Shown here one piece after another: positions 855 to 27,069 of a stretch of DNA of 64,000 nucleotides; positions within the stretch are counted from its first letter, which is position 1, and each line of letters opens with the position of its first letter. Made by a program: the position numbers and the translations under genes. Below the pieces are notes generated by a model, which saw only the letters and a program-made list of their open reading frames with translations, was not told the origin of the DNA and ran no database searches. Where the stretch lies: the NCBI RefSeq assembly GCF_963921235.1, contig NC_086097.1, positions 96,288,001 through 96,352,000 of the forward strand. Direction: 5' to 3'. The stretch is from Mobula hypostoma. Taxonomy: Eukaryota.

Positions 855-3800
855 GGCCCTGGACCTCAGCCGGCAGCCTCAAGACCCCGAACCCTGGATC
901 GCAGCCTCAAGACTCCCGACCCCGTACCGCAGCCTCAAGACCCCGGACCCCAGACCGCAGCCTGCGGCCTCAAGATCCCAGACCCCAGACTTCAGCCTCA
1001 AGACCCTGGACCCCGGACACCAGACCGCAGCTTCAAGACCCTGGACCCTGGACCACAGCCTCAAGACCTCAGACCACGGACCGTAACCTCAAGACCCTGG
1101 ACCCCGGACCCCAGACCGCAGCTTCAAGACCCCGGACCCTGTACCGCAGCCTCAGGACCCCGGACCTCAGATCGTAGCCTCAAGACCCCAGACCCCAGAA
1201 TGCAGCTTTAAGACCCCGGATGGTAGCCTCAAGATGCTGGGCCGCAGACCGTAGCCTCAAGACCCGGGACACCAGACTGTAGCTTCAAGACCCCAGACAA
1301 CAGACCGCAGCCACAAGGCACTGGACCCCATACCGCAGCCTCAAGATCCAGGACCCCGGACCGCAGCCTCAAGACCCTGAACCCCAGACTGCAGCCTCAA
1401 GACCCCGAAACCCAGACCGCAGCCTCAAGACCCCGGACCACAGCCTTAAGACACCAGACCCTGGAACCCGGCTCCCAGCCTGCAGCCTCAAGAACCTGGA
1501 CCCCAGACTGCAGCCTCAAGACCCCAGACCACAGCCTCAAGACACTGGACCCCAGACTGCAGCCATAAGACCCAGAACCCCAGACTGCAGCCTCAAGACC
1601 CCGGACCCTGGACTGCAGCCGCAAGACCCCGGACCCCAGACTGCAGCCTCAAGACCCCGGAGCCTGGACCGCAGCCTTAAGACACCAGACCCTGGAACCC
1701 GGACCCCAGCCTGCAGCCTCGAGACCCTGGACCCTGGACTGCAACCTCAAGACCCCAGACCACAGCCTCAAGACACTGGACCCCAGACTGCAGCCTCAAG
1801 ACCCAGAACCCCAGACTGCAGCCTTAAGACCCCGGACTCTGGACCGCAGCCTCAAGACCCCGGACTCCGGACTGCAGCCTCAAGACCCCGGACCCCGGAC
1901 CACAGCCTCAAGACCCCGACCTCCAGACCACAGCCTCAAGACCCCGGACTGCAGCCTCAAGACTCCGGATCCTGGACCCCAGCCGGCAGCCTCAAGACCC
2001 TGGACCCTGGACCGCAGCCTCAAGGCCCCGGACTCTGGACCGCAGCCTCAAAACCCTGGACCCCAGACTGCAGCCTCAAGACCCCGGATTGCAGCCTCAA
2101 GACCCCAGACCCCGGACCCCAGTCTGCAGCCTCAAGACCCCGGACCCTGGACCCCAGCCTTAACAGCCCAGACCCCGGACCACAGCCTCAAGTCCCTGGA
2201 CCCCATACAACAGCCTCAAGACCCCGGACCCTGGACCTCAGCCGGCAGCCTCAAGACCCTGGACCCCGGGCCCAGGACCCTGGAACCCAGACCCCAGCCT
2301 GCAGCCTCAGCACCCGGACCCCGGACTCCAGACCGCAGCCTCAAGATCCCGGACCCAGGACCGCAGCCTTAAGACCCCAGACCCTGGACCTCAGCCGGCA
2401 GCCTCAAGACCCTGGACCCCGGGCCCAGGACCCCGGAACCCGGACCCCAGCCGGCAGCCTCAAGACCCCAGACCCCGGACTGCAGCCTCAAGACCCCAGA
2501 CCCTGGACCTCAGCTGGCAGCTTCAAGACCCCCGACTCCGGAGCCAGGACCCCAGCCTTAAGACCCTGGACCCTGGAACCTGGACCCCAGCCTGCAGCTT
2601 CAAGACCCTGGAACCCGGACCCCAGCTTGCAGCCTCAAGACCCCGGACCCCAGACCACAGACGCCAGCCTGCAGCCTCAAGACATAGGAACCCAGCCTGC
2701 AGCCTCAAGACCTCGGACCCTGAACCACAGACTCAAGACCCCGGACCGCTGCCTCAAGACCCACGACCCCAGACCGCAGCCTCAAGGCTCCAGACCGCAG
2801 CCTGAAAACCCCGGACCCTGGACCCCAGACCCCAGGGTCAAGATCCCGGACCCCAGACCCCTCCCTGCAGCCTCAAGACCCCGGACCCTGGACCCCAGAC
2901 CGCAGCCTCAAGACCCCGGACCCTGGACCTCAACCGGCAGCCTCAGGCCCCGGACCCTGGGCCCAGGGCCGGAGCCTTAAGACTCTGGACACTGGAACCC
3001 AGACCCCAGCCTTCAGCCTCAAGACCCCAAACCCCAGCTGGCAGACTCATGACCCCGGAAAGCAGCCCCTAGACCTAGGACCTCGGACCGCAGCCTCAAG
3101 ACCCTGGACCACAGCCTCAAGACCCTCAACCCCAGACCGCAGCATCAAGACCCTCAACCCTGGACCGCAGCCTCAAGACCCTCAACCCTGGACCGCAGCC
3201 TCAAGACCCCAGACCCCAGACTGCAGCCTCAAGACCCCGGACCCCGGACCGCAGCCTCAAGACCTAGGACCGCAGCCTTAAGACCCCGGATCCTGGAACC
3301 TGGACATCAGCCTGCAGCCTCAAGACTCTGGATCCTGGACCCCAGCCGGCAGCCTCAAGACAGTGGACCCCAGACCACAGCCTCAAGACCCTGGACCCCA
3401 AGACTGCAGCCTCAAGACTCCGGACCCCGGACCGCAGCCTCAAGACCCCGGACCCCAGACTGCAGCCTCAAGACGCCAGACCCTGGACACCAGACCGCAG
3501 CCTCAAGACCCAGGACCCCAGCCTACAGCCTCAAGACACCGGATTGCAGCCTCAAGACCCTGGACCCCGGACTGCAGCCTCAAGACACCAGACCCCAGCC
3601 TCAAGACCCTGGACCCCACACCCCCAGCTCAAGACCTCGGACCCCAGACCCCAGGCTCAAGACCGCCGACCCCATACCGCAGCCTCAGGACCCTGGACCC
3701 CAGACCGCAACCTCAAGACCCTGGACCCTCGACCATGGACCTCAGCCGGCAGCCGCAAGATCCTGGACCGCAGCCTCAAGACCCCAGACCTCGAACCGCA

Positions 3801-6800
3801 GCCTCAATACCCCAGACCCCAGATCGCAGCATCAAGACCCCGGGCCGCAGCCGCAAGACCCTGGACCACGGACCACAGCCTCATGACCCCGGACCCCGCA
3901 CCGCAGCTTCAAGACCCCAGGGCCCGGACCGCAACCTCAAGACCCTGGACCCTCGACTATGGACCTCAGCCGGCAGCCGCAAGATCCTGGACCACAGCCT
4001 CAAGACCCCAGACCCCGGACCACAGCCTCAAGACCCCAGACCCTAGTCCGCAGCCTCAAGTCCCCGGACTGCAGCCTCAAGACCCCGGACCCCAGAACGC
4101 AGCCTGAAGACCCTGGACCGCAGCCTTAAGACCCCGGACCCTGGACTCCAGCATCAAGACCCCGGACCCCGGACACCAGACCGCAGCCTCAAGACACCAG
4201 ACCGCAGCCTCAAGACAGCGGACTGCAGCCTCAAGACCCCGGACCCCAGAACATAGCCTCAAGACCCCGGACCGCAGCCTTAAGACCCCGGACCCTGGGC
4301 TCCAGCATCAAGACCCCTGACCCTGGACACCAGACCGCAGCCTCAAGACACCAGACCGCAGCCTCAAGACCCTGGACCGCGGACCCCAGACCCCAGCCTC
4401 AAGACCCTGGACCCCAGACCCCAGGGTCAAGACCCTGGACCCCAGACCCCTGCCTACAGCCTCAAGACCCTGGACCCGGGACCCCAGACCCCAGCCTCAA
4501 GACCACAGACCCCGGACAGCAGCCTCAAGACACCAGACCCCAGACCGCAACCTCAAGACCTCGGACCCCAAACCGCAACCTCAAGACCCTGGACCCTTGA
4601 CCATGGACCTCAGCCGGCAGCCGCAAGATCCTGGACCGCAGCCTCAAGACCCCAGACCCCAGACTGCAGCCTCAAGACCCCAGACCCCAGTCTCAAGTCC
4701 CCGGACTGCAGCCTCAAGACCCTGGATTCCAGACCCCAGGGTCAAGACCCCGGACCCCAGACCCTAGTTTCAAGAACCCAGACCCCAGACCCCTGCCTGC
4801 AGACTCAAGACCCTAGACCCCAGACCCCAGCCTCAAGACCCCGGACCCCATACCGCAGCCTCAAGACCCCGGACCCCAGACCGCAACCTCAAGACCATGG
4901 ACCCTGGACCCCGGACCTCAGCTGGCAGCCTCAAGACCCCGGACCCCGGACTCTGGACCGCAGCCTCAAGACCCCGGATCCCGGAGCCAGGACAGCAGCC
5001 TTAAGACCACAGACCCTGGATCCCAACCGGCAGCCTCAAGACCCCGGACCACAGCCCCATGACCCCGGACCCTGCACCGCAGCTTCAAACTCCAGACCCC
5101 AGACAACAGCCTCAAGACGTCAGACCGCAGCCTCAAGACACCGGACTGCAGCCTCAAGACCCCGGACCACAGCATCATGACCCCGGACCCTGCACCGCAG
5201 CTTCAAGACCCCAGACCCCAAACAACAGCCTCAAGACACCAGACCGCAGCCTCAAGACACTGGACCGCAGCCTCAAGACCCTGGACCCCGGACCGCAGTC
5301 TCAAGACCCCGGACCCCAGACCCCAGACTCAAGACCCTGGACCCCAGACCCCAGGGTCAAGACCCCAGACCCCTGCCTGCAGCCTCAAGACCCTGGACCC
5401 CGGACCCCAGACCCCAGCCTCAAGACCACAGACCCCGGACAGCAGCCTCAAGACACCAGACCCCAGACCGCAACCTCAAGACCCTGGACCCTTGACCATG
5501 GACCTCAGCCGGCAGCCGCAAGATCCTGGACTGCAGCCTCAAGACCCCAGACCGCAGCCTCATGACCCCGGATCCTGCACCGCAGCTTCAAGACCCCAGA
5601 CCCCAGACAACAGCCTCAAGACACCAGACCGCAGCCTCAAGACACTGGACCGCAGCCTCAAGACCCTGGACCCCGGACCGCAGTCTCAAGACCCCGGACC
5701 CCAGACCCCAGACTCAAGACCCTGGACCCCAGACCCCAGGGTCAAGACCCCAGACCCCTGCCTGCAGCCTCAAGACCCTGGACCCCGGACCCCAGACCCC
5801 AGCCTCAAGACCACAGACCCCGGACAGCAGCCTCAAGACACCAGACCCCAGACCGCAACCTCAAGACCCTGGACCCTTGACCATGGACCTCAGCCGGCAG
5901 CCGCAAGATCCTGGACTGCAGCCTCAAGACCCCAGACCGCAGCCTCATGACCCCGGATCCTGCACCGCAGCTTCAAGACCCCAGACCCCAGACAACAGCC
6001 TCAAGACACCAGACCACAGCCTCAAGACACCGGACCGCAGCCTCAAGACTCCGGACCACAGCCTCATGACCCCGGACTCTGCACCGCAGCTTCAAGACCC
6101 CAGACAACAGCCTCAAGACACCAGACCACAGCCTCAAGACACCGGACCACAGCCTCAAGACCCTGGACCCCGGACCGCAGTCTCAAGTCCCCAGACCCCA
6201 AACCCCAGACTCAAGACCCTGGACCCCAGACCCCAGGGTCAAGACCCCGGACCCCAGACCCCTGCCTGCAGCCTCAAGACCCTGGACCCCGGACCCCAGC
6301 CTCAAGACCACAGACCCCGGACAGCAGCCTCAAGATACCAGACCCCAGACCGCAACCTCAAGACCCTGGACCCTTGACCATGGACCTCAGCCGGCAGCCG
6401 CAAGATCCTGGACTGCAGCCTCAAGACCCCAGACCGCAGCCTCATGACCCCGGACCCAGGGCCTCAGCTTTAAGACCCCGGACCCCAGCCTGCAGCCTCA
6501 AGTTCCTGGACCCCGGACCCGAGACTGCAGCATCAAGACTCTGGACCCTGGACCCCAGCCAGCAGCCTCAAGACCCCCGACCCTGGACTGCAGCCTCAAG
6601 ACCCCGGACCCCAGACCGCAGCCTCAAGACCCCGGACCCCGGATCACAGCCTCAAGACCCCGGACCCTGGAAATCAGACCCCAGCCTGCAGCCTCAAGAC
6701 CCCCGACCCTGGACCGCAGCTTCAAGACCCCGGACCCCGGTCTGCAGCCTCAAGACCCCGGACCACAGCCTCATGACCCTGGACTCTGCACCGCAGCTTC

Positions 6801-9800
6801 AAGACCCCAGACAACAGCCTCAAGACACCAGACCACAGCCTCAAGACACCGGACCGCAGACTCAAGACCCTGGACCCCGGACCGCAGTCTCAAGACCCCG
6901 GACCCCAGACCCCAGACTCAAGACCCTGGACCCCAGACCCCAGGGTCAAGACCCCGGACCCCAGACCCCAGACCCCTGCCTGCAGCCTCAAGACCCTGGA
7001 CCCCGGATCCCAGCCTCAAGACCACAGACCCCGGACAGCAGCCTCAAGACACCAGACCCCAGACCGCAACCTCAAGACCTCGGACCCCAAACCGCAACCT
7101 CAAGACCTTGGACCCTTGACCATGGACCTCACCCGGCAGCTGCAAGATCCTGGACCGCAGCCTCAAGACCCCAGACCCCAGACCACAGTCTCAAGTCCCC
7201 GGACTGCAGCCTCAAGACCCTGGACCCCGGACCACAGCCTCAAGACGCTGGACCCCGGCCCCCAGCCTCAAGACCCTGGATCCCAGACCCCAGGGTCAAG
7301 ACCCCGGACCCCAGACCCTAGTCTCAAGAACCCAGACCCCAGACCCCTGCCTGCAGACTCAGGACCCTAGACCCCAGACCCCAGCCTCAAAGACCCCGGA
7401 CCCCATACCGCATCTTCAAGACCCCAGACCCCAGACAACAGCCTCAAGACGCCAGACCCCAGACAGCAGCCTCAAGACCACGGACCCCAGACCGCAGCCT
7501 CAAGACCCCAGACCCCAGACCTTAACCTCAAGACCTTGGACTCTGTACCTCAGCCGGCAGCTGCAAGACCCCAGATCGCAGCCTCAAGACCCTGAACCTA
7601 GGACAGCAGCTTTTAGACCACGGACCCTGGACCCCAACCGGCAGCCACAAGACCCCGGACCCAGGACCACAGCTTCAGGACCCCGGACCCCGGACCGTAG
7701 CCTCCAGACCCCGAACTGCAGCCTCAAGACTCCGCACCACAGACCGCAGCCTCAAAACCCCGGACCCCAGCCGCAACCTCAAGACCCTGGACCCTGGACC
7801 TAAGCCGGCAGCTGCAATACCCTAGACCGCAGCCTCAAGACCCCAGACCCCAGATTGCAGCCTCAAGACCCTGGACCCCGGACTCCAGACCACAGCCTCA
7901 AGACCCCGGACCCCGGAGCCAGGACAGCAGCCTTAAGACCACGGATCCTGGACCCCAACCAGCAGCCTCAAGACCCCGGAATCCAGACCACAGCTTCAGG
8001 ACCCCGGACCCCGGACCGTAACCTCCAGACCCCGGACCGCAGCCTCAAGACTCCGGACCACAGACCACAGCCTCAAGACCCCGGACCACAGACTGCAGCC
8101 TCAATACCCCGGACCCCAGACCGCAGCCTAAAGACCCTGGATCCCGGATCGCAGCCTCAATATCCCGGACCCCGGACCCAGGACCGCTGCCTTAAGACCC
8201 CGGACCCTGGAACCCGGAACCCAGCCAGCAGCCACAGGACCCCGGACCCCAGACTGCAGCCTCAAGATTTCGGACCCTGGACCCCAGCCGGCAGCCTCAA
8301 GACCCAGGACCCTGGACCGCAGCCTCAAGACCCCGGACCCTGGACCGCAGCCTCAAGACCCTGGACCCCAGACCACAGCCTCAAGACCCCAGACCCCAGA
8401 CACCAGACCGCAGCCTCAAGACCAAGGAACCCAGCCTGCAGCCTCAAGACACCGGATCGCAGCCTCAAGAACCTGGACCCCGGACTGCAGTCTCAAGACC
8501 CCGGACCCCAGATGCCAGCCTCAAGACCCCAGACCCCAGACCCCAGACCCTAGCCTCAAGACCCCGGACCCCAGACCCCTGCCTGCAGCCTCAAAACCCT
8601 GAACCCCTGACCCCAGACCCCAGCCTGCAGCCGCATGACCCCGGACCCCGCACCGCAGCTTCAAGACCCCGGACCACAGACCACAGCCTCAAAACCCCGG
8701 TCCCCCGACTACAGCCTCAAGATCCCGGACCCCAGACTGCAGCCTTAAGACCCCGGACCCCAGACCACAATCTCAAGACCCTGGACCCTGGACCTCAGCC
8801 GGCAGCCGCAATACCCCAGACTGCAGCCTCAAGACCCCAGATGCCGGATTGCAGCCTCAAGACCCTGGACCCCAGACTCCAGACCGCAGCCTCAAGACCC
8901 CGGACCCCGGAGACAGGACAGCAGCCATAAGACCACAGACCCTGGACCCCAACCGTCAGCCACAAGACCCCGGACCCAGGACCACAGCTTCAGGACCTCG
9001 GACCACATCCCGTAGCCTCCAGACCCTGGACCCTGGACTGCAGCCTCAAGACCCCAGACCCTGGACCGTAGCCTCAAGACCCTGGACCCTGGACCACAGA
9101 CCCCAGCCTGCAGCCTCAAGACCCAGGAACCCAGCCTGCAGCCTCAAGACCTCGACCCCGGAATGTAGCCTCAAGACCCCGGACCCTGGACCCCAGCTGG
9201 CAGCCTCAAGACCCTGAACAGCAGAATCAACACCCTCGACCCCAGACTGCAGCCTCAACACCCCGGACCGCAGCCTCAAGACCCTGGACCCTGGACCGCA
9301 GCCTCAAGACTCCGGACTGCAGCCTCAAGACCCCGGACCCTGGACCCCAGCCTGCAGCCTCAAGACCCCGGACTCTGAACCCCAGACCCCAGGGTCAAGA
9401 TCCCGGACCCCAGACACCTGCCTGCAGCCTCAAGACCCTGGACCCCGGACCCCAGACCTCAGCCTGCAGCCGCAAGACCCCAGACCCTGGACCCCACACC
9501 GCAGCTTCAAGACCCCGGACCCCAGACAACAGCCTCAAGACCCCAGACCCTGGACCACAGCCTCAAGACCCCAGATGCCGGATTGCAGCCTCAAGACCCT
9601 GGACCCCAGACTGCAGACCGCAGCCTCAAGACCCCGGACCCCGGAGCCAGGACAGCAGCCATAAGACCCCGGACCCAGGACCACAGCTTCAGGACCCCGG
9701 ACCACAGACCGTAGCCTCCAGACCCTGGACCCCGGACTGCAGCCTCAAGACCCCGGACCCCGGACTGCAGCCTAAAGACCCTGGACTGCAGCCCCAAGAC

Positions 9801-12800
9801 CCTGGACCCTGGACCGTAGCCTCAAGACCCCGGACCACAGCCTCAAGACCCCAGACCACAGACCGCAGCCTCAAAACCCCGGACCCCGGACTGCAGCATC
9901 AAGACCCCGGACCCTGGACTGCAGCCTCAAGCTCTCGGACCCCGGACCCAGGTCTGCAGCCTTAAGACCCCGGACCCGGGAACCCGGAACCCAGCCAGCA
10001 GCCTCAAGATCCCAGACCCCAGACCATAGCCTCAAGACCCCGGACACCGGAGCACAGCCTCAGGACCCCCGACCCCAGACCGTAGCCTTAAGACCCCGGA
10101 CCCTGGAACCTGGAACCCAGCCGGCAGCCTCAAGCCTCCAGAACCCGGACCGCAGCCTCAAGACCCTGCACCCCAGACCGCAGCCTCAAGACCCCGGACC
10201 CCGGACCCAGGGCCTCAGCTTTAAGACCCCGGACCCCAGCCTGCAGCCTCAAGTTCCTGGACCCCGGACCCGAGACTGCAGCATCAAGACTCCGGACCCT
10301 GGACCCCAGCCAGCAGCCTCAAGACCCTGGACTGCAGCCTCAAGACCCCGGACCCCAGACCGCAGCCTCAAGACCCCGGACTGCAGCCTCAAGACCCGGG
10401 ACACTGGACCTCAGCCTTAAGACCCTGGACCCTGGACCCCAGACCGCAGCCTCAAGGCCCTGGACCCCGTACCGCAGCCTCAAGACCCTGGACCCTGGAA
10501 ATCAGACCCCAGCCTGCAGCCTCAAGATGCCAGACCCCGGAACCCAGCCGGCAGCCTCAAGACCCCTGACCCTGGACTGCAGCTTCGAGACCCCGGACCC
10601 CAGACTGCAGCCTCAAGACCCTGGACCCTGGATCCCAGCTGGCCGCCTCAAGACCCCGGACCCTGGACTGCAATCTCAACACCCCAGACCCCGGACCGTA
10701 GCCTCAAGACCACAGACCCCAGCCTGCAGCCTCAAGACCCAGGAACCCAGCCTGCAGCCTCAAGACCTCGACCCCAGAATGTAGCCTCAAGACCCCGGAC
10801 CCTGGACCCCAGCCGGCAGCCTCAAGACCCTGAACTGCAGGCTCAAGACCCTCGACCCCAGACTGCAGCCTCAACACCCCGGACCGCAGCCTCAAGACTC
10901 TGGACTGCAGCCTCAAGACCCCGGACCCTGGACCCCAGCCTGCAGCCTCAAGACCCCAGACCCCAGGGTCAAGATCCCGGACCTCAGACCCCTGCCTGCA
11001 GCCTCAAGACCCTGGACCCCGGATCGCAGCCTCAAGACTCCGGACTGCAGCCTCAAGACCCCGGACCCTGGACCCCTGCCTGCAGCCTCAAGACCCTGGA
11101 CCCCGGACCCCAGACCTCAGCCTGCAGCCGCAAGACCCCAGACCCCGAACCACAGCCTCAAGACCCCAGACTGCAGCCTCAAGACTCAAGACCCCAGACC
11201 CTAGACTGCAACCTCAAGACCGTGGACCCTGGACCCCGGACCTCAGCCGGCAGCCTCAAGACCCCAGACCACAGCCTCAAGACCCTGGACCCTGGACCGC
11301 AGCCTCAAGACCCTGGACCCCGGACCCCAAACCTCAGCCTGCAGCCGCAAGACCCCAGACCCCGGACCACAGCCTCAAGACTCCGGACTGCAGCCTCAGA
11401 CCCCAGACCCTGGACCCCAGCCTGCAGCCTCAAGACCCCAGACTCTGGACCCCAGACCCCAGGGTCAAGATCCCGGACCCCAGACACCTGCCTGCAGCCT
11501 CAAGACCCTGGACCCTGGACCCCGGAACTCAGCTGGCAGCCTCAAGACCCTGGACCACAGCCTCAAGACCCCGGACCCCGGACTGCAGTTTCAAGACCCC
11601 GGATCCCGGAGCCAGGACAGCAGCCTTAAGACCACGGATCCTGGACCCCAACTGGCAGCCTCAAGACCGCGGACCCCGGACCACAGCCTCAGGACCCTGG
11701 ACCCCGGACCGCAGCCTCAAGACTTCGGAACACAGACCGCAGCCTCAAGACCTTGGACCCTGGACCACAGCCTCAAGACCCCAGACCCTGGACCCCAGAC
11801 CCCAGCCTCAAGACCCTGGACCCCAGACCCCAGACTCAAGACCCGGACCCCAGACCCCAGCCTCATGACCCCGGACCCCGGACACCAGACTGCACCCTCA
11901 AGACCCAAGACCCCAGCCTACAGCCTGAAGACCCCGGACCCAGGACTGTAGCCTCAAGACCCCGGACCCCAGACCCCAGCCGGCAGCCTCAAGACCCCGG
12001 ACCGCAGCCTGAAGACCCTGGACCCCGGACCGTAGCCTCAAGACCACGGACCCCAGACCCCAGCCGGCAGCTTCAAGACCCCGGACCGCAGACTCAAGAC
12101 CCTGGACCCTGGACCGTAGCCTCAAGACCCCGGACCCCGGACCACAGACCCCAGCCTGCAGCCTCAAGACCTCGACCCCGGAATGTAGCCTCAAGACCCC
12201 GGACCCTGGACCCCAGCTGGCAGCCTCAAGACCTTGAACCGCAGACTCAACACCCTCGACCCCAGACTGCAGCCTCAACACCCCGGACCGCAGCCTCAAG
12301 ACCCTGGACCCTGGACCGCAGCCTCAAGACTCCGGACTGCAGCCTCAAGACCCCGGACCCTGCACCCCAGCCTGCAGCCTCAAGACCCCGGACTCTGGAC
12401 CCCAGACCCCAGGGTCAAGATCCCGGACCCCAGACCCCTGCCTGCAGCCTCAAGACCCTGGACCCCAGACCCCAGACCTCAGCCTGCAGCCGTAAGACCC
12501 CAGACCGCAGTCTCAAGACTTCGGAACACAGACCGCAGCCTCAAGACCCTGGACCCCGGACCACAGCCTCAAGACCCCGGACCCTGGACCCCAGACCGCA
12601 GCCTCAAGACCCTGGAACGTGGACCGCAGCCTCAAGACCCCGGATCGCGGACCACAGACCCCAGCCTCAAGACCTGGACCCCAGACCCCAGCCTCATGAC
12701 CCCAGACCCCGGACACCAGACTGCACCCTCAAGACCCAAGACCCCAGCCTGCAGCCTGAAGACCCCGGACCCAGGACCGTAGCCTCAAGACCCCGGACCC

Positions 12801-15800: not shown

Positions 15801-18800
15801 AAACCCCAGACCCCGTACTGCAACCTCAAGACCCCGGACCCCAGACCACAGCCTCTAGACCCCGGACCCCTGTCTGCAGCCTCAAGACCCTAACGCAGCC
15901 TCAAGACCCCGGACCCCGGACTCGGACCGCAGCCTCAAGACCCTGGATGCTGACTCCGGACCCCAGCCTGCAGCCTGAAGACCCCAGACCCAGGACCGCA
16001 GCCTCAAGACCCCGGACCCCAGACTCCTGCCTGCAGTCTCAAGACCCTGGACCTCGGACCCCAGACCCCAGCCTGCAACCTCAAGACCCCGGACCCCGTA
16101 CCACAGCCTCAAGACCCCGGACCCCAGACCACAGCCTCTAGACCCCGGACCCCTGTCTGCAGCCTCAAGACCCCGGATGCCGACTCCGGACCGCAGCCTC
16201 AAGACCCTGGACCCCGGACCCAGGGCCGCAGCTTTAAGACCATGGACCCCGGAACCCGGACCCCAGCCTGCAACCTCAAGTTCCTGGACCCCGGACCCGA
16301 GACTGCAGCATCAAGACTCCGGACCCTGGACCCCAGCCAGCAGCCTCAAGACCCTGGACCCTGGACTGCAGCCTCAAGACCCCGGACCCCAGACCGCAGC
16401 CTCAAGACCCTGGACCCCGGATCACAGCCTCAAGACCCCGGACCCTGGAAATCAGACCCCAGCCTGCAGCCTCAAGACCCCCGACCCTGGACCGCAGCTT
16501 CAAGACCCCGGACCCCGGTCTGCAGCCTCAAGACCCTGGACCCTGGATCCCAGCTGGCCGCCTCAAGACCCCGGACCCTGGACTGCAGCCTCAAGACGCC
16601 GGATCCCAGACTGCAGCCTCAAGACCCTGGAACCCGGACCCTAGACTCAAGACCCGGACCCCAGACCCCAGTCTTAAGACCCCGGACCCTGGACCCCAGA
16701 CCGCAGCCTCAAGTCCCTGGACCCCATATCGCAGCCGCAAGACCCCGGACCCTGGAAATCAGACCCCAGCCTGCAGCCTCAAGATGCCGGACCCCGGACC
16801 CTAGCCGGCAGCCTCAAGACCCCCGACCCTGGACCACAGCCTCAAGACCCCAGACCCTGCACCGCAGCTTCAAGACCCTGGAGCCCAGACTGCAGCCTCA
16901 AGACCCCGGACCCTGGACCCCAGCCTTAAGACCCAGGACTCTGGACCCCAGACCGCAGCCTCAAGTCCCTGGACCCCATATCGCAGCCTCAAGACCCCGG
17001 ACTCCAGACCGCAGCCTCAAGACCCTGGATCCCGGACCACAGCTGGAAGCCTCAAGGCCCCCGACCCTGGACCACAGCCTCAAGACTCCGGACTGCAGCC
17101 TCAAGATCCAGGACCCTGGACCCAGGACCACAGCCTTAAGCCCCGGACCCTAGAACCCGGAACCCAACCAGCAGCCTCAAGACCCCGGACCCTGGACTTC
17201 AGACAGCAGCTTCAAGCCCCCAGAACCCGGACCGCAGCCTCAAGACCCTGCACCCCAGACCGCAACCTCAAGACTACGGACCCTGGACTCGGACCGCAGC
17301 CTCAAGACCCTGGACCCCGGACCCTGAAACCGGGACCCCAGCCTGCAGCCTCAAGTTCTTGGACCCCGGACCCGAGACTGCAGCATCAAGACTCCGGACC
17401 CTGGACCTCAGCCAGAGGCCTCAAGACCCTGGACCCTGGACTGCAGCCTCAAGACCCCGGACCCCAGACCGCAGCCTCAAGACCCCGGACTGCAGCCTCA
17501 AGACCCCGAACCCTGGACCCCAGCCTTAAGACCCCGGACCCTGGACCCCAGACCGCAGCCTCAAGTCCCTGGACCCCATATCGCAGCCTCAAGACCCTGG
17601 ACCCTGGAAATCAGACCCCAGCCTGCAGCCTCAAGATGCCGGACCCCGGACCCTAGCCGGCAGCCTCAAGACCCCCGACCCTGGACCACAGCCTCAAGAC
17701 CCCAGACCCTGCACCGCAGCTTCAAGACCCCGGAGCCCAGACTGCAGCCTCAAGACCCCGGACCCTGGACCCCAGCCTTAAGACCCCGGACCTTGGACCC
17801 CAGACCGCAGCCTCAAGTCCCTGGACCCCATATCGCAGCCTCAAGACCCCGGACTCCGGACCGCAGCCTCAAGACCCTGGACCCCGGACCCAGGGCCGCA
17901 GCTTTAAGACCATGGACCCCGGAACCCGGACCCCAGCCTGCAGCCTCAAGTTCCTGGACCCCGGACTCGAGACTGCAGCATCAAGACTTCGGACCCTGGA
18001 CCCCAGCCAGCAGCCTCAAGACCCCCGACCCTGGACTGCAGCCTCAAGACCCCGGACCCCAGACTGCAGCCTCAAGACCCAGGACCCCGGATTGCAGCCT
18101 CAAGACCCCGGACACTGGATCCCAGCCTTAAGACCCCAGACCTTGGACCCCAGACCGCAGCCTCAAGTCCCTGGACCCCATACCGCAGCCTCAAGACCCC
18201 GGACCCTGGAAATCAGACCCCAACCTGCAGCCTCAAGACCCCCGACCCTGGATCCCAGCTGGCCGCCTCAAGATCCCGGACCCTGGACCGCAGCCTCAAG
18301 ACGCCGGATCCCAGACTGCAGCCTCAAGACGCCGGATCCCAGACCGCAGCCTCAAGACCCCTGACCCCAGCCTGCAGCCTGAAGACCCCGGACCCAGGAC
18401 CGCAGCCTCAAGACCCCGGACCCCGGACTGCAGCCTCAAGACCCTGGACCTCGGACCCCAGACCCCAGCCTGCAACCTCAAAACCCCGGACCCCGTACTG
18501 CAACCTCAAGACCCCGGACCCCAGACCACAGCCTCTAGACCCCGGACCCCTGTCTGCAGCCTCAAGACCCTAACGCAGCCTCAAGACCCCGGACCCCGGA
18601 CTCGGACCGCAGCCTCAAGACCCTGGATGCTGACTCCGGACCCCAGCCTGCAGCCTGAAGACCCCGGACCCAGGACCGCAGCCTCAAGACCCCGGACCCC
18701 AGACTCCTGCCCGCAGCCTCAAGACCCTGGACCTCGGACCCCAGACCCCAGCCTGCAACCTCAAGACCCTGGACCCCGTACCACAGCCTCAAGACCCCGG

Positions 18801-20600
18801 ACCCCAGACCACAGCCTCTAGACCCCGGACCCCTGTCTGCAGCCTCAAGACCCCGGATGCCGACTCCGGACCGCAGCCTCAAGACCCTGGACCCCGGACC
18901 CAGGGCCGCAGCTTTAAGACCATGGACCCCGGAACCCGGACCCCAGCCTGCAGCCTCAAGTTCCTGGACCCCGGACTCGAGACTGCAGCATCAAGACTCC
19001 GGACCCTGGACCCCAGCCAGCAGCCTCAAGACCCCCGACCCTGGACTGCAGCCTCAAGACCCCGGACCCCAGACTGCAGCCTCAAGACCCAGGACCCCGG
19101 ATTGCAGCCTCAAGACCCCGGACACTGGATCCCAGCCTTAAGACCCCAGACCTTGGACCCCAGACCGCAGCCTCAAGTCCCTGGACCCCATACCGCAGCC
19201 TCAAGACCCCGGACCCTGGAAATCAGACCCCAACCTGCAGCCTCAAGACCCCCGACCCTGGATCCCAGCTGGCCGCCTCAAGATCCCGGACCCTGGACCG
19301 CAGCCTCAAGACGCCGGATCCCAGACTGCAGCCTCAAGACGCCGGATCCCAGACCGCAGCCTCAAGACCCCTGACCCCAGCCTGCAGCCTGAAGACCCCG
19401 GACCCAGGACCGCAGCCTCAAGACCCCGGACCCCGGACTGCAGCCTCAAGACCCTGGACCTCGGACCCCAGACCCCAGCCTGCAACCTCAAAACCCCGGA
19501 CCCCGTACTGCAACCTCAAGACCCCGGACCCCAGACCACAGCCTCTAGACCCCGGACCCCTGTCTGCAGCCTCAAGACCCTAACGCAGCCTCAAGACCCC
19601 GGACCCCAGACTCGGACCGCAGCCTCAAGACCCTGGATGCTGACTCCGGACCCCAGCCTGCAGCCTGAAGACCCTGGACCCAGGACCGCAGCCTCAAGAC
19701 CCCGGACCCCAGACTCCTGCCTGCAGCCTCAAGACCCTGGACCTCGGACCCCAGACCCCAGCCTGCAACCTCAAGACCCCGGACCCCGTACCACAGCCTC
19801 AAGACCCCGGACCCCAGACCACAGCCTCTAGACCCCGGACCCCTGTCTGCAGCCTCAAGACCCCGGATGCCGACTCCGGACCGCAGCCTCAAGACCCTGG
19901 ACCCCGGACCCAGGGCCGCAGCTTTAAGACCATGGACCCCGGAACCCGGACCCCAGCCTGCAGCCTCAAGTTCCTGGACCCCGGACCCGAGACTGCAGCA
20001 TCAAGACTCCGGACCCTGGACCCCAGCCAGCAGCCTCAAGACCCTGGACCCTGGACTGCAGCCTCAAGACCCCGGACCCCAGACCGCAGCCTCAAGACCC
20101 CGGACCCCGGATCACAGCCTCAAGACCCCGGACCCTGGAAATCAGACCCCAGCCTGCAGCCTCAAGACCCCCGACCCTGGACCGCAGCTTCAAGACCCCG
20201 GACCCCGGTCTGCAGCCTCAAGACCCTGGACCCTGGATCCCAGCTGGCCGCCTCAAGACCCCGGACCCTGGACTGCAGCCTCAAGACGCCGGATCCCAGA
20301 CTGCAGCCTCAAGACCCTGGAACCCGGACCCTAGACTCAAGACCCGGACCCCAGACCCCAGCCTCAAGACCCCGGACCCCGGACACCAGACTGCACCCTC
20401 AAGACCCAAGACCCCAGCCTGCAGCCTGAAGACCCCGGACCCAGGACTGCATCTCAAGACCCTGGACCTCGGACCCCAGACCCCAGCCTGCAACCTCAAG
20501 ACCCCGGGCCCCGTACCGCAGCCTCAAGACCCCGGACCCCAGACCACAGCCTCTAGACCCTGGACCCCGGACCCCAGACCGCAGCCTCAAGACCCCAGCC
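855..20600. repeat. ~19.7-kb complex heptamer satellite (units GACCCCG/GACCCTG/GACCCCA/GACCGCA/GACTGCA/GACCACA/GCCTCAA/GCCTGCA/GCCGGCA), roughly 2,800 units
   Basis: Read directly: near-continuous 7-bp periodicity; C-rich plus strand, G-rich minus strand; internal segmental duplications of 385 bp and 1010 bp. Confidence 0.97.
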
Positions 20601-20945
20601 ACGTCCTGTCCTGTAGCCATGTCATGTCCTTGCCTGGTTCTGGGGTCCGAGCGCGAGGCAAGACCCAGGTTCTGGGTCCTTGTCCAGTCTCTGGCTCGGA
20701 CTCCAAGCTCAGGCTCCTAGTTCATGGTTCCTAGTTCTTGTCCCGATTTCCCAAGCCCAGGCTCCTAGTTCATAGCTCCTTGTCTCGGTTCCCTGTCTAG
20801 TCCATGTCCTAGCCCAAGTCTGCGTTCTTGTCCCTGCTCCTTGTCTGTATCCTGTCACGTCCCTACTCTAGTCAAGTCCTGTTCGTAGTACATCAGGGTC
20901 TGTGTCTTGCATTTGGGTCTGTTCCCAACGCCCCCCTTTGTAACA
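20601..20945 (+). mobile_element. Surviving 3' portion of the 5' LTR of a Gypsy (Tf1/sushi-like) LTR retroelement; ends TGTAACA
   Basis: Ungapped direct repeat of 22148-22492 (offset 1547; about 21 mismatches in 345 bp by eye). Canonical ...CA LTR end, followed by a PBS-position sequence and ATG GAC CCA GCA. Confidence 0.85.
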
Positions 20946-21111
20946 GAATGAACCAGCCATTCATGGACCCAGCAACACAGACACTATCCTCTAGTCCCTT
21001 CACCCCAGGTTCCCTCCTGATTGAATAAGACCCCCCCTCACCCGCCCGAGTCGTCCTTAGTCCTGGAAAGCCTCTTCGGTCGCCCGGAGACTCCCATGGG
21101 GGGGCGGTTAC
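20946..21111 (+). mobile_element. 166-bp residual internal domain of the LTR element (PBS-position sequence, MDPA gag-like start at 20963, G-rich PPT at 21098-21104)
   Basis: GAATGAACCAGCCATTCATGGACCCAGCA follows the LTR end directly. GGGGGGGCGGTTAC precedes TGTCATGG. Both match the layout of fish sushi-like chromoviral Gypsy elements; gag-pol is deleted. Confidence 0.75.
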
Positions 21112-21247
21112 TGTCATGGTCCGGTCCGTGAAGTCCACATTCCGGTTCATGGTCCGGTCCGTGGACTCAGGACTCTGGGTCTTCCAGCTGTCCCTTATTT
21201 TGGTTGGGTTAATCATAGGCACCTGATTCCCATCTTGCGGCTCGGAA

Positions 21248-21287
21248 TATAAGTAGCCTTGGGGTTGAGTGTGGGCTGCTGGTTTGT
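21248..21287 (+). promoter_or_regulatory. LTR promoter: TATAA at 21248 with predicted transcript start near 21278 (GCTGGTTTGT)
   Basis: TATAAGTAGCC motif. The sequence 30 nt downstream is complementary to the PBS-position sequence at 20948-20957. Confidence 0.55.
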
Positions 21288-21600
21288 CTTGTCGAGATCC
21301 CCTGGGAGCAACCTGCCAGTGGAAGGCTAGAGCAGCCACTTGCCATCTTTAGGCCGTGTTGGAGAACCATCGCTTCATGGAGCCTTGCTGTCGGTAGTTG
21401 GAGCTGTCTTTGCGGTGTGGATTTGGCCATTTCCCGGGCCAGCTGAGTTGCTGTCAGCCCCTCCGAGCTAGGTAGGGATCTGGCTGTTTCCGTAGCCAGC
21501 CGAGGTTGCTGGCCGTAACTGCAACTCGGAGCAACCCCGATGCAGAGATGGAACTGTCTGTCGTTCTTCGGTGTTTGTCTCTTCTTGTCCTCATCTCCAT

Positions 21601-21835
21601 GGGGTAAGTCAGGCCGTTCTGCCGTTGCCCTGCGGGGGGGATCTGTCTTGTCTTGTCCTCGCCTCCACGGGGTAACTCAGGCCGTTCTGCTGTTGCCCTG
21701 CGGGGGGGATCTGTCTTGTCTTGTCCTCGCCTCTGTAGGGTAAGTCAAGCCATTCTGCCATTGCCCTGCAGGGGGATCTGTCTTGTCTTGTCTTTGCCTC
21801 TGTTGAGTAAGTCCGGCCATTCTGCCATTATCCGA
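21601..21835 (+). repeat. ~68-bp tandem repeat (about 3.5 copies) inside the LTR
   Basis: GGGTAAGTCAGGCCGTTCTGCCGTTGCCCTGCGGGGGGGATCTGTCTTGTCTTGTC-like unit recurring near 21601, 21669, 21737 and, partially, 21805. Confidence 0.85.
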
Positions 21836-21997
21836 CAGATGGACCTGTCCCACCTTGGTGTGGAGATAAAGTTGAGTCCCGGCTTTATGTCTATGTACTG
21901 TCCAGTCTCATGTTAGAATCGTGTTAAAGATGAGTCCGGCTTTTCAAAGGATAAGTCCTGGCTCTATGTTGATGTACGGTTCCCAGTCTGTCTCCGA

Positions 21998-22147
21998 GCT
22001 CCAGCCTCCAAGTTACCAGCCTCCAGCCCCAAGATCCCAGCTTCCAGCCTTCAGCCCCAAGATCCCAGCCTGCAGCCCCAAGACCCAAGACCCCAGCCTG
22101 CAGCCCCAAGACCCAAGCCCCCAGCCTGCAACCTCAAGACCCCAGCC
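21998..22147 (+). repeat. Short (~20 unit) heptamer array in the intact LTR, homologous in position to the 19.7-kb satellite
   Basis: Units GCCTCCA, GCCCCAA, GATCCCA, GCCTGCA, GACCCAA, GACCCCA, ACCTCAA. It ends CCTCAAGACCCCAGCCACGTCC, exactly as the large array does. Confidence 0.9.
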
Positions 22148-25100
22148 ACGTCCTGTCCTATAGCCATGTCATGTCCTTGCCTGGTTCTGGGGTCCGAGCG
22201 TGAGACAAGACCCAGATTCTGGGTCCTTGCCCAGTCTCTAGCTCGGACTCCAAGCTCAGGCTCCTAGTTCATGGTTCCTAGTCCTGGTCCCGCTTTCCCA
22301 AGCCCAGGCTCCTAGTTCATAGCTCCTTGTCCAGGTTGCCTGTCTAGTCCATGTCCTAGCCCAAGTCTGCGTTCTTGTCCCTGCTCCTTGTCTGTATCCT
22401 GTCGCGTCTCTACTCTAGTCAAGTCCTGTTCATAGTACTTCAGTGTCTGTGTCTTGCATTTGGGTCCGTTCCCAATGCCCCCTTTTGTGACACACAAAGC
22501 CATTTAGAGAGCTAATTTTGACTATTAAAAGTATTATTATTGCACTGAAATATTGGTGACAACTGCAATTGCATTGAGAATATCCTTGTTTATATTTGAA
22601 ACTATGCACTGGGGAATTTGGAGGTATGGTATATGGTAAGATTCAACTATCTCAGCAGTGCTTAAAGTTGAAGAGTTAGCATTGTTGCATAATTGCGTTA
22701 ATTGGCCTCCAGCATGCAGGAATCAATTCCTTGCAACTTGGCCTAAGAAGCTCTGGCATTGCCACATGTACAAGTTACACATGCTGAACTTATGATAGTC
22801 CACAGGGATGCCATCTGGCCTTTCACAGAAAGACAAATGTCAAAGTGGTCCAGTCATTGAACAATAAAGGAAAACATTAAAACAAATCTTAAAAGCAATA
22901 AGTTGGGTTTCATGGCGCTTATTATACAGCTGTGTAGTCCATCTGCAGTGAAAGCTTTTAAAGTTATGTGAATTTTGTGAAATTGCCAATCCAACTCTGC
23001 AACAATGCCAAAGAATGAGAATACATTTTCTTTAATTCATCCTTTTTAACAACCAGTTGTACCAACACATATAAATAAGAAAGGAAAATTCTAGAAATTT
23101 CATGTCAGGCAGCATTTATGGAAAGAGAAACAGTCAGCCATTTGGATTTGTGAAGGGTTCAGATTTTTAGCATATACCGTTTTTTTTTAAGATTTTGATG
23201 CACTAATGCACCAATTGGTTCTATATTGCATCTCAAACCATCTCTTCCGTATTATTCCATGATTGAAAAGGTAGATAGGTTCCATTTGCTCCTAAACTTC
23301 ATGCACTTGCAGAGATGCTTAAGACTATGTCGAAACACTTTACTCTTTTTTTGCTTTCTCCACATCTTGGGACTTCTCTAACAGCTGTCCAAGATCAAGA
23401 AAAAAAACTGTGCAGAGAACTGAGACCCAAAACCATGTTCTAAAAGTCAGATGCATTTCTACAATTTTGAATCATGGAAAAGTACCCTTCCCTTGTGCTT
23501 CATTTCTATATCGAAATACTTGGCTCAATTCTTATACATAATCCCAGGAATCTCACTTGAGATATGACAAAGAAATGTTCAAGTCATTCTCCAAAATTAA
23601 TAATGTGCTCCTAAAATTATTGATCTGCAGGACTCAGAAGTCTTTTCATGTTGATTTTCAGAAGGGAGGTATGATAATTGAAGGCTGTTAAGGAAACAAG
23701 CCTGATAAAGACAGGTTTTAAAAACCTTATAATTACAAAATATTGAATGGCCATGATGGAACAGAAAATTCAATTTATAGATTCCGTGACTGAGGACAAA
23801 GTGTATGGTGAGCCTCAATTTCAAAACAGGAAGAAAAAGGGGAAAGAAGAACAGCATATTTAGAGTTTAGGGTGAACTAAAGAAAAAACCTCACAGAAGA
23901 ATTAACAACTACATTTGTACCATGCTGGTAAAAATAAAATATAGTCAAGATAAAGAGGGTACAGTATGGTCGTGAGAAGGGAAAATCCACATCAGTGGAC
24001 AAAGAAGACCTACTAAATTTAGTAGTAACAGCGATAGCCTTGGGCTTTACAGAGAATTAAAAGTAAGAGGAGCTTTGGTTTCTTGGATGCAGCTTCAACT
24101 AAGGAGAAAGTTTACTTCATGGAACAAAATGTAAAAGAAATACTAAACTAATTAAAAAGCCAATAGCACTTCATTAATGATCATGGAGCACACGAGGTTA
24201 AATCTTACTCCAGAGAAATAGCTTTTCACAAATCATTGTTTTGACTCAAATTATAAGAAACTGCAGTTTTAAATTTCTTTCCTCTGTAGATTTCAATGTA
24301 CTGTCAAAATCAGTATACAGGCCAGAGAAAACACAGCTGTAATCTCTAGGTTCTCAAGATGAGTAAGAATAATTCTAGGATCTAAAAGCCTAAGAGTTTC
24401 ATCTTTCCAGAATTTGTGCCTTCTGAGAACAACGTAATTTTATGTCCTTTGAGAAAATGCTCCAAATTTATGATTTGTCAGTTACACAAAGAAGCAGAGA
24501 CAAGTGGTGCTCCAATTATGGGCCTCTCTAGGGCCACAATAAGAATACTATCAGTTTTCTATAATTTTATATTACCCTCAACTAATAGCAAGGGCATCAA
24601 TTTTATAATGTGAGATGTTTAGGAAATGACATTTCAACATGTATATTATTGAGTCTTTTAAGTTCAGCTGCGAGCTGCAAAAATTTAAAACCACACATGA
24701 TAACTTCAATTTACAATATTTACTGTACTTGATATTTTCACCAGTTAACAAATAAACTTGAATATTTATTTTGGTGAAAATGATACTTACTCAAGCATTT
24801 GCTATCAGTCAATGCAAACCAAGACTTTATTTTATGCTCTAGATATATGCTTAAAAATAACTACAGTTTCTAATTATCATTCCTTTCCACTTTGGGTATT
24901 TTTCACACTTTATTATTTCCACTTATGAAATCTTATAACTGGTATGTTATGAACAATAGTTGGTTCAAAAAGAAATATAAAGTGAATTTTATTAAAAAGA
25001 TTAAAATGATTAAAGATTTGTCTCGATAAAAAGCAATTGCAGAGTTCTACATGAGCACTTCAACTTTCACTTGAAACATACTTACTGGAGACAAATGAAA

Positions 25101-26538
25101 GTAATGAAGCAAGTGTGGAGAAGTAGCAGTGAGGAGAAACACAACTCAGAATAGTAAGGTACTGAATTCTTAAGGAAATCAGAGAAGAAAGGTGGTTGTG
25201 CTGATTACATTATTTCAACATTTCTTTGATTATAGAGATTGCGTTAAACATCTAGAGGACAGGCTATACAAAATTCTGTTCATTGAAGAAGCCAGGTAAC
25301 TATAGTCAGCCCTAAACTTCCAGACTGAATCTTTCTTGATACTTGAATACAGAGTGAATTTAGAATACACTTTTGAATTCTAATTTGTAAAACGAGCCGC
25401 GTCTAACAAATTTAACAGATTTCACACAGCACAGCCACAAAGGGATATCGTACATCAGCTTTTCATAAGGAACTTGATCAGATTCTAGGTTGAGATTTGC
25501 TGATTGGGGGAAATGTGCCAGTATGGCAGAAAATGAGCAGAACACTTTTCAAACTTCAGGGTTGCAAAAAATGGTGCCTAGCTCAAGGTTAATAACAGGA
25601 CCAGTAGAGAAAAATGGGATTTTTGTTTTACTGTAAAGAACTTTATGAAGAATTCCTTAAAGGTGCCATACTATTAATGATTTTAGGAATGTCAATGGCT
25701 ATGAAGAACTTTGTGAGATTACAAGCTCTTCTTCCATATTCTGCCCTATAGCTGTTTGATTACAGCTGGGTGCAGAAGAATTTTTTTCCAGCATCTTCTC
25801 ACTCGCTTTTGAAATCTTAGACTGTGGTCCCAATATGCCCAGATCCCAAAGAATTGGATTTTTCTCTCCAATGATCCTAAGGAATCCTGCCTTAGTAATG
25901 CTACATAACACAATAGAACAGGGTTTCTCAACCAGGGTTCTGTGAGGGGTTGCTCAGGGCTCCGTGAGAGATAGTGATAAAAAAAAACATCATTTTTTGA
26001 GCTTTGCACAACTACGATGCTAGCACTCGCAGTGATGGACAGTGACCAAGCAGCCCATTAACAATCTCATTAGAGGTCTCCCAGCCCAGTATGGCAATGC
26101 ACAGTAGGACGGACCATGTTTATTTGGTTGAGTCCATTCTCAGTTTTTGATGCGAGATTGGTGAGCCCTGTACTGAATGCAGGGGAGGACTGTAGTCTGA
26201 TAAGAAGTGTGAAGTGCATTTTCTGAGCATTGAATAGACTTGCCCATTTTTATACTTTATTAACCCCTATGTTTTGCGGACATGTCTGACGGTCCAATGC
26301 GGCGATTTTTGAATTACAATCTTCTGAGTCATTTCACTGCACTAGTGCAACAACGGAGACAAAAAAGTTCTGTCTTTACAATGAAGGCTATTTATCAATG
26401 GGTTTTACATAGACTGGTGATCCAAGTTGTCCTATTCCATTGTGCCTAGTCTGTGGCAAACAACTTAATGCAGGATTGGCTCCAGAAAAATTGAAAAGAC
26501 ATTTAACTACAAATCACAGCCATATGACATATAAAAGT

Positions 26539-26829: not shown

Positions 26830-27069
26830 TGACATATAAAAGTGCTGATTATTTTAAATGGTTATTGGAATCTCAAAACAAACAGAAAAAAAGCTTTTGT
26901 TAATAAAGTCACAGTCAGTAAAAAGACCCAGGAAGCAAGTTATTTAGTAGCAGAACTTATTATCCAGAAAAGGAAAAGTCACACAGTTGTTAAGAACCTA
27001 ATAATGCCAGAATGTAAAATCATAGTGGGTAAAATGCTAGGACATGATGCAGTACAAGAAATTGAAAAG

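Follow-up and report, generated by a model that had tools for sequence, protein, structure and literature searches.

A 20-kb Heptamer Satellite at a Truncated LTR of Mobula hypostoma: a Probable Satellite Birth of a Known Kind Beside Its Own Sister Tract

Introduction

Plants, mouse, human and frog all offer established cases of satellites seeded by the tandem tracts of mobile elements. The passages of Vondrak et al. (PMC7004042) that treat Lathyrus sativus describe short tandem tracts in Ty3/gypsy Ogre elements, often non-autonomous, which occasionally become long arrays; 9 of the 11 satellites studied are Ogre-derived in origin, and the authors weigh expansion against capture. The passage from a retroelement tract to a satellite and the same two directions are at issue here. 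According to those passages the plant tract lies in the 3′ UTR, so that the element holds no sister copy, whereas the tract considered here belongs to a vertebrate LTR and its locus is resolved to the base. In mouse, the minisatellites Ms6-hm and Hm-2 lie within MaLR LTRs (Kelly 1994, as cited in PMC9659126 and PMC6947457) and likewise are short-unit arrays born in the LTRs of a non-autonomous vertebrate element. Human LTR10A/F shares with our locus a variable tandem tract within an LTR: its internal VNTR is polymorphic, both among copies and from one individual to another, and is predicted to expand over more than 11,600 bp (PMC466953). It differs by its 28–30-bp unit, by the retroviral nature of the LTR and by multi-kb expansions that are somatic, in tumours; the passages concerned mention neither a 20-kb array in the germ line nor a comparison of sister copies (PMC466953). 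In Xenopus, the miDNA4 MITE and related models, as described in parts of PMC12628747, also derive a satellite from the internal tract of a mobile element, which lengthens into an array while the element ends are lost. That element is a DNA transposon with decayed ends, whereas in the case reported here a single end has been cut off and the opposite one is intact. No example from a cartilaginous fish and no comparison of two LTRs was found in the literature covered, outside of which lie most subscription papers and supplements.

The window, that is the whole 64,000-nucleotide stretch of Mobula hypostoma DNA that was analysed, holds a heptamer satellite of about 20 kb joined to the end of an LTR, with the second LTR of the element close by. 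A preliminary description had read this arrangement as a dated before/after view of satellite birth. We take the locus to represent a mode of satellite birth that is already known, but it does not provide a clean picture of that sort.

Results and Discussion

Organization of the Retroelement

The element follows the canonical order tail, primer site, 166-bp internal region, polypurine tract and LTR, all on the forward strand. The truncated 5′ LTR tail, which corresponds to the R/U5 end, spans positions 20601–20945 and is identical at 324 of 345 positions to 22148–22492. It is followed by the non-coding internal region (20946–21111), with a predicted primer-binding site at its start and the polypurine tract at its end, and by an intact 3′ LTR of 1,381 bp (21112–22492) bounded by TG...CA with 5-bp inverted ends. 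This LTR carries a TATA sequence at 21248, a 68-bp unit repeated 3.7 times at 21576–21826 and a heptamer tract of about 156 bp at 21992–22147, close to the ~150 bp of the preliminary description. Its transcript start is predicted near 21277, and its R/U5 portion already measures about 1.2 kb. The internal region has one short ATG-opened frame that meets a stop after 21 codons. No Pfam coding domain was detected in the element ORFs. The Pfam scan covered 66 of the 68 ORFs of at least 100 aa at 20600–64000 and one shorter ORF (the two left out overlap the array), and its matches, which comprise LINE, Penelope and hAT-type domains and one RMDN exon, are all outside the element. In the internal region no Rfam family reached threshold (one match scored far under the gathering score) and no tRNA gene was found.

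TRIM elements are recognized by a short non-coding internal region with a primer site and a polypurine tract, and by LTRs of a few hundred bases. The 166-bp internal region agrees with this definition but the 1,381-bp LTR does not. The source element is a non-autonomous LTR retrotransposon, likely of the Tf1/sushi-like Gypsy type. Elements of the Tf1/sushi group of Ty3/gypsy use no tRNA primer, their primer-binding site being complementary to the transcript start (passages of PMC6317226). The present one is also a vertebrate LTR element and may likewise dispense with a tRNA primer, its primer site being predicted to pair with the beginning of the transcript: among 1,367 LTR positions the best self-priming duplex falls 29 bases past the TATA, although 22 of 300 shuffled primers equal it in that interval. 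It differs by the lack of a coding region, so that it offers no sequence for the reverse-transcriptase/integrase phylogeny by which the group is defined, nor for its chromodomain.

The two tails, separated by 1,547 bp, show 21 differences over 345 sites (93.9% identity; 15 transitions and 6 transversions) with zero indels; the 16 bases that precede them are identical and, in the assembly, the junction from array to tail is in register. These observations bear out the estimate by eye (~94%, no indels) and the continuity of the large array with 345 bp of LTR end given in the preliminary description. The differences are evenly distributed (KS P=0.52), on which ground a crossover inside the tail was rejected, and CpG losses are two-sided, with four in the right copy and two in the left. 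The identity of 93.9% alone does not establish that the tails are sister LTRs, since 90–95% is the commonest class (3,778 of 8,847) among the contigs of run X1 that align to the LTR. That figure and the absence of a target-site duplication would both fit tails that stem from different insertions, or an assembly join at one of the array junctions (855 and 20600). We regard either as very improbable: the window has no N, homology across the in-register right junction extends through 16 bases and the 345 bp, little of the array is redundant, the tails enclose a canonical layout and show even, two-sided differences, and the junction of the intact LTR with its right flank is spanned in two organisms by contigs from runs X1 and X5. 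Like a full-length insertion, the locus has a primer-binding site and a polypurine tract enclosed by two LTRs in direct orientation; unlike one, it has a complete LTR on the right only, and no target-site duplication. The latter absence is expected if the left end of the element was lost.

On the minus strand, the window carries an RMDN3-like exon (residues ~330–356) at 32028–32108 and the preceding one (residues ~302–329) at 48407–48490. No RMDN3-like exon beyond residues ~330–356 was found in the 64-kb window, and the element therefore likely sits antisense in the next intron of this host gene. The array likely lengthens this intron by 20 kb; no function is suggested.

Structure and Edges of the Heptamer Array

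The satellite occupies positions 855–20600 (forward strand; 19,746 bp) and has a period of 7 with a 28-bp supra-unit. Parsing gave 7-mers for 2,792 of 2,828 pieces, with 226 distinct heptamer variants ordered by an X(n)-Y/W-Z grammar. The classes are X (GACCCCG type, n=1,455), Z (GCCTCAA, n=661), Y (GACCGCA type, n=511) and W (GCCTGCA type, n=165). The mouse arrays Ms6-hm and Hm-2 are reportedly simple, homogeneous repeats, from which these four classes, the many variants and the block structure set the present array apart. Strict G-quadruplex motifs cover 2% of its minus strand and loose motifs 9%, with a G4Hunter-type mean of 0.85 (1.26 in the sister tract); this content is compatible with array instability, without being evidence of cause.

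The left edge is broken. It interrupts a mature internal motif, as its terminal 49-mer matches internal copies at 42–44 of 49 positions while the bases upstream of it do not match. The left flank (1–854) is AT-rich and single-copy-like, holds no LTR sequence or target-site duplication beside the array, and showed no similarity by BLAST to the LTR or to the rest of the window. No target-site duplication was found at the left junction, the 4–6 bases past the right LTR recurring only at 319–725. LTR positions 1–887 (~890 bp) have no counterpart in the array or to its left. Host LTR sequence thus borders the array on one side only, and the view that the array lies inside one LTR is not upheld.

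Relationship of the Array to the Sister Tract

As in Ogre-type satellites, the units have their homologue in a short tract whose place in the element is fixed, which supports a derivation of the array from the heptamer tract of this LTR family. The sister tract has a W-Z'-X grammar with one CpG and no Y unit. Outside the junction, array and tract are 74–79% alike and share their grammar, and the W-type 28-mer supra-unit of the array is 3 of 28 bases off the sister tract. At the right end of the array (20327–20600, forward strand) sister-tract-like units occur in the order found in the intact LTR, and the final 16 bases are those of the sister. Units which the sister tract has and the array seldom uses gather close to the tail. 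Sister-tract units are enriched there as a colinear chain: the score of the terminal 30-unit segment is matched by 2 of 94 non-overlapping segments and that of the 40-unit segment by 1 of 70 (only itself), while the terminal 20 units are unremarkable (equalled by 14 of 141). Two uncommon runs had been cited as common to both tracts. Both were located in the array, at 20403 and 20486. GACCCAA-GACCCCA-GCCTGCA has two array occurrences and its rare unit three, and every one of them falls within a single family of block duplicates. GCCTGCA-ACCTCAA is found 9 times against 3.3 expected, weak evidence on its own because several copies are block duplicates of each other.

The likeness does not extend to a preserved unexpanded counterpart, as had been proposed: only 17% of the array heptamers are found in the sister tract, and the commonest Z-type unit of that tract makes up 4 of its 18 units against 2 of 2,827 in the array. 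Within the array the unit type changes 16–21 bases from the tail. A scan for the tract-tail junction gave no match in genome-contig and viral-contig collections; four metagenome-contig matches were dismissed as chance, their alignments being just 19–20 bases long.

The LTR family is abundant and its tract varies in length and sequence among copies, with 60–67-base skips and small insertions. In organisms A and B the depth aligning at the tract end is just 2–3% of that of the LTR body. This variability would suit a scenario in which both LTRs held a longer, diverse tract at insertion, the 5′ copy then expanding and the 3′ copy contracting, so that the short tract would be the derived one. One in-register deletion in the last 115 bp of the array indeed yields the end of the sister tract (20486–20600 against 22124–22147), and several frequent variants are each confined to one context, the pattern expected of seeds amplified early on. 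We nevertheless consider this scenario unlikely. Mutation origins are even across size classes with no small-seed spike (99% threshold), so that the seed would need about 2.5 kb or more, and a multi-kb tract in R/U5, which is copied during minus-strand strong-stop synthesis, would have to survive that step.

Block Duplications and Array Growth

Within the array, 191 block duplicates exceed the null maximum of 14.3 (null from two simulated arrays). They are 0.1–1.3 kb long, in tandem or up to 13.5 kb apart, with a median non-CpG divergence of 2.1%. A copy within 4.7% exists for 66% of the units, and collapsing these copies leaves no more than 1,400 of the 2,827 units. The array has therefore at least doubled through block copying younger than the LTR split. 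The 130-fold growth after integration proposed earlier stands as an upper bound, about 2-fold being accounted for by block copying. The segment 855–3700 (forward strand) has the fewest detectable block duplicates (18–31% covered) and is likely the oldest part. The youngest part, 15704–20444 (forward strand), has block duplicates with few differences: a 1,010-bp tandem duplicate (12 differences in 1,269 bp), a copy at an offset of 3,690 bp (8 differences in 967 bp) and a 273-bp block whose second copy lies 13.5 kb off at 6481 (3 differences). Three marker pairs without a shared derived base were excluded from the dating as non-homologous, and ungapped duplicate divergences, inflated by non-homologous edges, were set aside.

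Comparison of the Array with the LTR Clock

The non-CpG divergence between the tails is 4.7% (2.35% per lineage). Organism B (1.0% apart) shares the element insertion and organism D (6.3% apart) likely lacks it, a sensible bracket which supports this value. LTR-LTR conversion, known in plants (parts of PMC7251063), could make the element far older than its clock, but is disfavoured by the likely absence in D.

The LTR divergence had been put forward as an internal clock for the array. It does not serve as one, since the array units are 2.0–2.6 times more diverged than it permits (P from 0.002 to 1e-5). At array rates, 38.6 non-CpG differences would be expected in the tails against 15 seen (P=1e-5), and 12.2 transversions against 4 (P=0.007; ratio 3). 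For class-invariant G and C sites the array/tail ratio is 2.0 (P=0.002), and 1.5 for the G rate alone (P=0.08). Mutations common to at most 7 units amount to 4.0–5.4% per lineage against 2.35% in the tails, the same sum being 2.3% at a lenient threshold, which over-merges. The CpG/non-CpG ratio is 11.7 in array duplicates and 8–10 in the tails; as the array ratio is not below that of the tails, no repair-type acceleration is visible in the array (P=0.024 for a 2.3-fold one). CpG decay was rejected as a clock: about half of the Y units retain their CpG, 7 of 13 tail CpGs are concordant, and the comparison is non-discriminating after conditioning.

Origin of the Array

The explanation we prefer, with a confidence slightly short of even, is that the satellite grew in place, changed faster than its neighbours and later lost its left side. 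The seed would be the final W-Z-X units of the 5′ LTR tract, Y possibly arising as an in-register X/W chimera. The tract would then have grown in situ as complete units and blocks were copied over and over, with the G-rich opposite strand perhaps contributing to instability, while array substitution outpaced that of the LTR tails. A 1.5–2.6-fold rate would be required; substitution in or near satellites is reported to be 2.2–3.8-fold faster (passages of bioRxiv 2020.09.08.285395). A later deletion would have removed the left part of the array together with the LTR front and the target-site duplication. The canonical element layout, the even two-directional tail differences and the sister-like units colinear beside the tail speak for growth in place. 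Against it stand the two additional steps demanded (deletion and rate increase), the age excess of array over tail, the unchanged CpG/non-CpG ratio and the 17% heptamer sharing.

A close rival, plausible though somewhat less probable in our judgement, is that an older array, made of the same units of family origin and grown at another LTR copy, was joined to the 5′ LTR through heptamer homology and then grew. Joining could proceed by one-sided break repair copying several kb of the donor, or by recombination with a neighbouring array. A single event would delete the LTR front and the target-site duplication and spare the right end of the tract, after which the captured piece at least doubled. 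The short tracts in thousands of LTR copies may, with that same qualified probability, act as landing pads, one of which would here have received, by homology, a copy of an older satellite with which it shares its ancestry; this copy would have replaced the front half of the LTR and then multiplied in place. Such a capture accounts jointly for the 2–2.6-fold age excess and the unchanged CpG/non-CpG ratio, as well as for the missing left part, the cut through a mature array and the switch of unit type next to the tail. Long-range copying is real here, as the 273-bp block over 13.5 kb attests, and the family is abundant with a variable tract. The depth of tract-like sequence relative to the LTR body, a summed contig depth that gives a hint only, is 2.6 in organism F and 0.1–0.2 in A, B and D. 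Three points weigh against capture: no donor array was seen, a look-up covering 275 stretches having shown nothing similar in this genome; the 74–79% likeness of array and tract outside the junction is low for strand invasion; and the age excess is built on 14–15 tail differences, so that a 1.5-fold rate difference would erase most of it. If capture is correct, the satellite would spread between loci by way of the retrotransposon family that gave rise to it, and the divergence of the two LTRs would date the arrival of the array rather than its birth.

The value of the locus lies in the control that it carries within itself: a 20-kb array resolved to the base has a sister tract and a pair of LTRs next to it, and relatives about 1%, 3% and 6% apart add to this. 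This control exposes a conflict, as the array appears to be about double the age of the LTR pair. Either substitution in a young vertebrate satellite runs at about twice the rate of its surroundings, or a new locus was seeded with an older satellite via an LTR tract; both alternatives inform how satellites begin and spread.

Composition of the Array and Its Junction with the LTR

The tandem array extends over 19,746 bp of the window (855-20600), with a period of 7 bp and a supra-unit of 28 bp. It was parsed into 2,828 pieces, 2,792 of which are 7-mers; there are 226 heptamer types. The unit classes are X (GACCCCG type, 1,455 units), Z (GCCTCAA, 661 units), Y (GACCGCA type, 511 units) and W (GCCTGCA type, 165 units), and X-X-Y-Z is the most frequent supra-unit (245 occurrences). 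The array is continued in register by the 345-bp tail of a truncated 5′ LTR (20601-20945). This tail is identical at 324 of 345 sites, without indels, to the end (22148-22492) of the intact 3′ LTR (21112-22492), confirming the junction reported in the preliminary description. Non-CpG differences between the two tails amount to 15 in 319 (4.7%; 95% interval 2.7-7.6%). The 16 bases directly preceding each tail are identical in the array and in the short heptamer tract of the intact LTR (21992-22147, the sister tract).

The left side of the array is organized differently. LTR positions 1-887 are matched neither within the array nor to its left, no target-site duplication of the element was found, and the left edge begins within a motif that occurs many times inside the array. 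The left end is thus a break through a mature array, and the proposed location of the satellite inside one LTR is not supported.

The LTR Element and Its Probable Host Intron

A primer-binding site and a polypurine tract are found in the 166 bp that separate the tail from the intact LTR. When the primer site is compared with every LTR position, its best duplex begins 29 bases past the TATA box (a result equalled by 22 of 300 shuffled primers), a position at which the primer site of self-priming Tf1/sushi elements is expected to pair (PMC6317226). This predicted self-priming start would place the heptamer tract in R/U5. A Pfam scan of ORFs revealed no coding domain left in the element. A second tandem repeat (68 bp × 3.7, 86% matches) is present inside the intact LTR at 21576-21826.

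The best protein hits identify the host as a ray. An RMDN3-like gene is represented on the minus strand by two intact exons (48407-48490 and 32028-32108). No exon following the latter was found within the window, so that element and array likely sit in an intron no shorter than 32 kb. Most of the remaining window is occupied by LINE (esterase, endonuclease, RT) and Penelope-like (RT, GIY-YIG) fragments (33246-38386, 43732-46615, 50483-55403, 59246-62661). A BED zinc-finger fragment of a hAT-type transposase (26413-26649), scoring under the Pfam cut-off, is broken by a two-part inverted short repeat (26535-26835) whose halves match other sites of the window.

Comparison of the Array with the Sister Tract

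Array and sister tract have a common W-Z-X grammar and are 74-79% alike. Close to the tail, units of the sister tract occur as a colinear chain, whose terminal score is reached by 2 of the 94 non-overlapping windows of 30 units and by 1 of the 70 of 40 units, but by 14 of the 141 of 20 units. Only 17% of the array heptamers are found in the sister tract, which has no Y unit and a single CpG (43 CpG per kb in the array), and the Z variant most frequent in the tract (4 of 18 units) represents 2 of the 2,827 array units. The sister tract can hardly be regarded as a preserved unexpanded counterpart. A longer seed tract at insertion, followed by contraction of the sister tract, is unlikely.

Growth by Block Copying and Divergence of the Units

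A unit-level search of the array identified 191 block duplicates above the null maximum (from 2 simulated arrays), with a median non-CpG divergence of 2.1%. A copy within 4.7% exists for 66% of the units and merging such copies leaves at most 1,400 of 2,827 units (9.8 kb). The array therefore at least doubled, by block copies, over a period equal to the age of the LTR split; this much of the ~130-fold growth first suggested is supported. The youngest copies are located at 15.7-20.4 kb and 5.1-6.5 kb. A 273-bp block found at 6481-6753 and 19949-20221, 13.5 kb apart and with 3 differences, is a case of non-tandem copying within the array.

At non-CpG sites, array units have diverged from the consensus of their class by 6.1-6.3%, versus 2.35% per branch for the tails, so that the use of LTR divergence as an internal clock for the array is not supported. 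Changes from the Z-class consensus are spread across 19 of 21 possible single changes. Array rates predict 38.6 tail differences where 15 are seen (P = 1e-5), and 12.2 versus 4 for transversions only (P = 0.007). At the two sites common to all unit classes, where chimeric units could not imitate a change, the array/tail ratio is 2.0 (P = 0.002), dropping to 1.5 (P = 0.08) when the lower rate, that of G, is applied. Mutations common to at most 7 units total 4.0% (99% threshold) to 5.4% (blocks only), or 2.3% with a lenient, over-merging threshold. In array duplicates the CpG/non-CpG ratio is 11.7, no lower than the 8-10 of the tails, which argues mildly against repair-driven acceleration (P = 0.024). 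As these estimates are all built on 14-15 tail differences, most of the excess would vanish if the rates differed 1.5-fold.

Our tentative preference is for growth in place. The last heptamer units of the 5′ LTR tract would have been the seed, slippage would have given rise to the X-X-Y-Z unit, and blocks would have been copied by unequal exchange and template switching. The array would accumulate substitutions more quickly than the tails and would subsequently have lost its left part through a deletion that also took away the front of the LTR and the target-site duplication. There is precedent for faster change in the vicinity of satellites (bioRxiv 2020.09.08.285395). The tenfold rate reported for Arabidopsis centromeres is mostly due to conversion between units (bioRxiv 2025.06.02.657473), a process that would not raise the distance from consensus. 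It is also quite possible, if somewhat less probable, that a single event, mediated by heptamer homology, joined the LTR to an older array sharing its ancestry, which subsequently grew; this would account for every anomaly but requires a donor array.

Relatives and the LTR Family

At least half of the words were present in 8 of the 21 sequencing runs listed, and four runs were aligned to 21830-25500. A contig of organism A (run X1), which may be the source sample, is identical to 22454-23133. That of organism B (run X5; flank 1.0% apart) has 2 differences over 22456-23133 and spans the LTR-flank junction by 37 bases; the insertion is therefore older than the A-B split. Flank contigs of organisms F (3.3%) and D (6.3%) cease aligning at 22577 and extend 393 and 1,146 letters further. 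Bin depth points to another short piece, which ends at 22575. Both break at the same place (22576-22577), 84 bp beyond the right end of the LTR, and alignment seems to resume just left of it; the A/B lineage has probably undergone a deletion here. No LTR tail-to-flank join of D or F is found among the eight long pieces listed per run. If the indel at 22576 is common to F and D, several hundred bases in D are not LTR tail and D likely lacks the insertion. The contigs listed would then date the insertion between 1.0% and 6.3% divergence, in agreement with the LTR clock.

The summed depth of the LTR family, which is not a copy number, is thousands of times that of the flank in A and B. Among the contigs aligned from run X1, 3,778 of 8,847 are 90-95% alike to the LTR, so the 93.9% identity of the tails alone does not prove that they are sisters. 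That they derive from different insertions, or that the assembly is artefactual, is improbable; we consider the array a real feature and its initial interpretation partly supported. At 22076-22131 the ratio of tract-like to LTR-body depth (summed contig depth, not copy number) is 2.6 in F (run X18) and 0.1-0.2 in A, B and D, hinting at separate tract expansions or another subfamily mix in F.

No cartilaginous-fish case and no two-LTR comparison were found in the literature searched, which left out most subscription papers. Satellites that arise when tracts internal to mobile elements expand are already known, having been described for Ogre elements (PMC7004042), MaLR LTR minisatellites (PMC9659126, PMC6947457), LTR10 VNTRs (PMC466953) and MITEs (PMC12628747).
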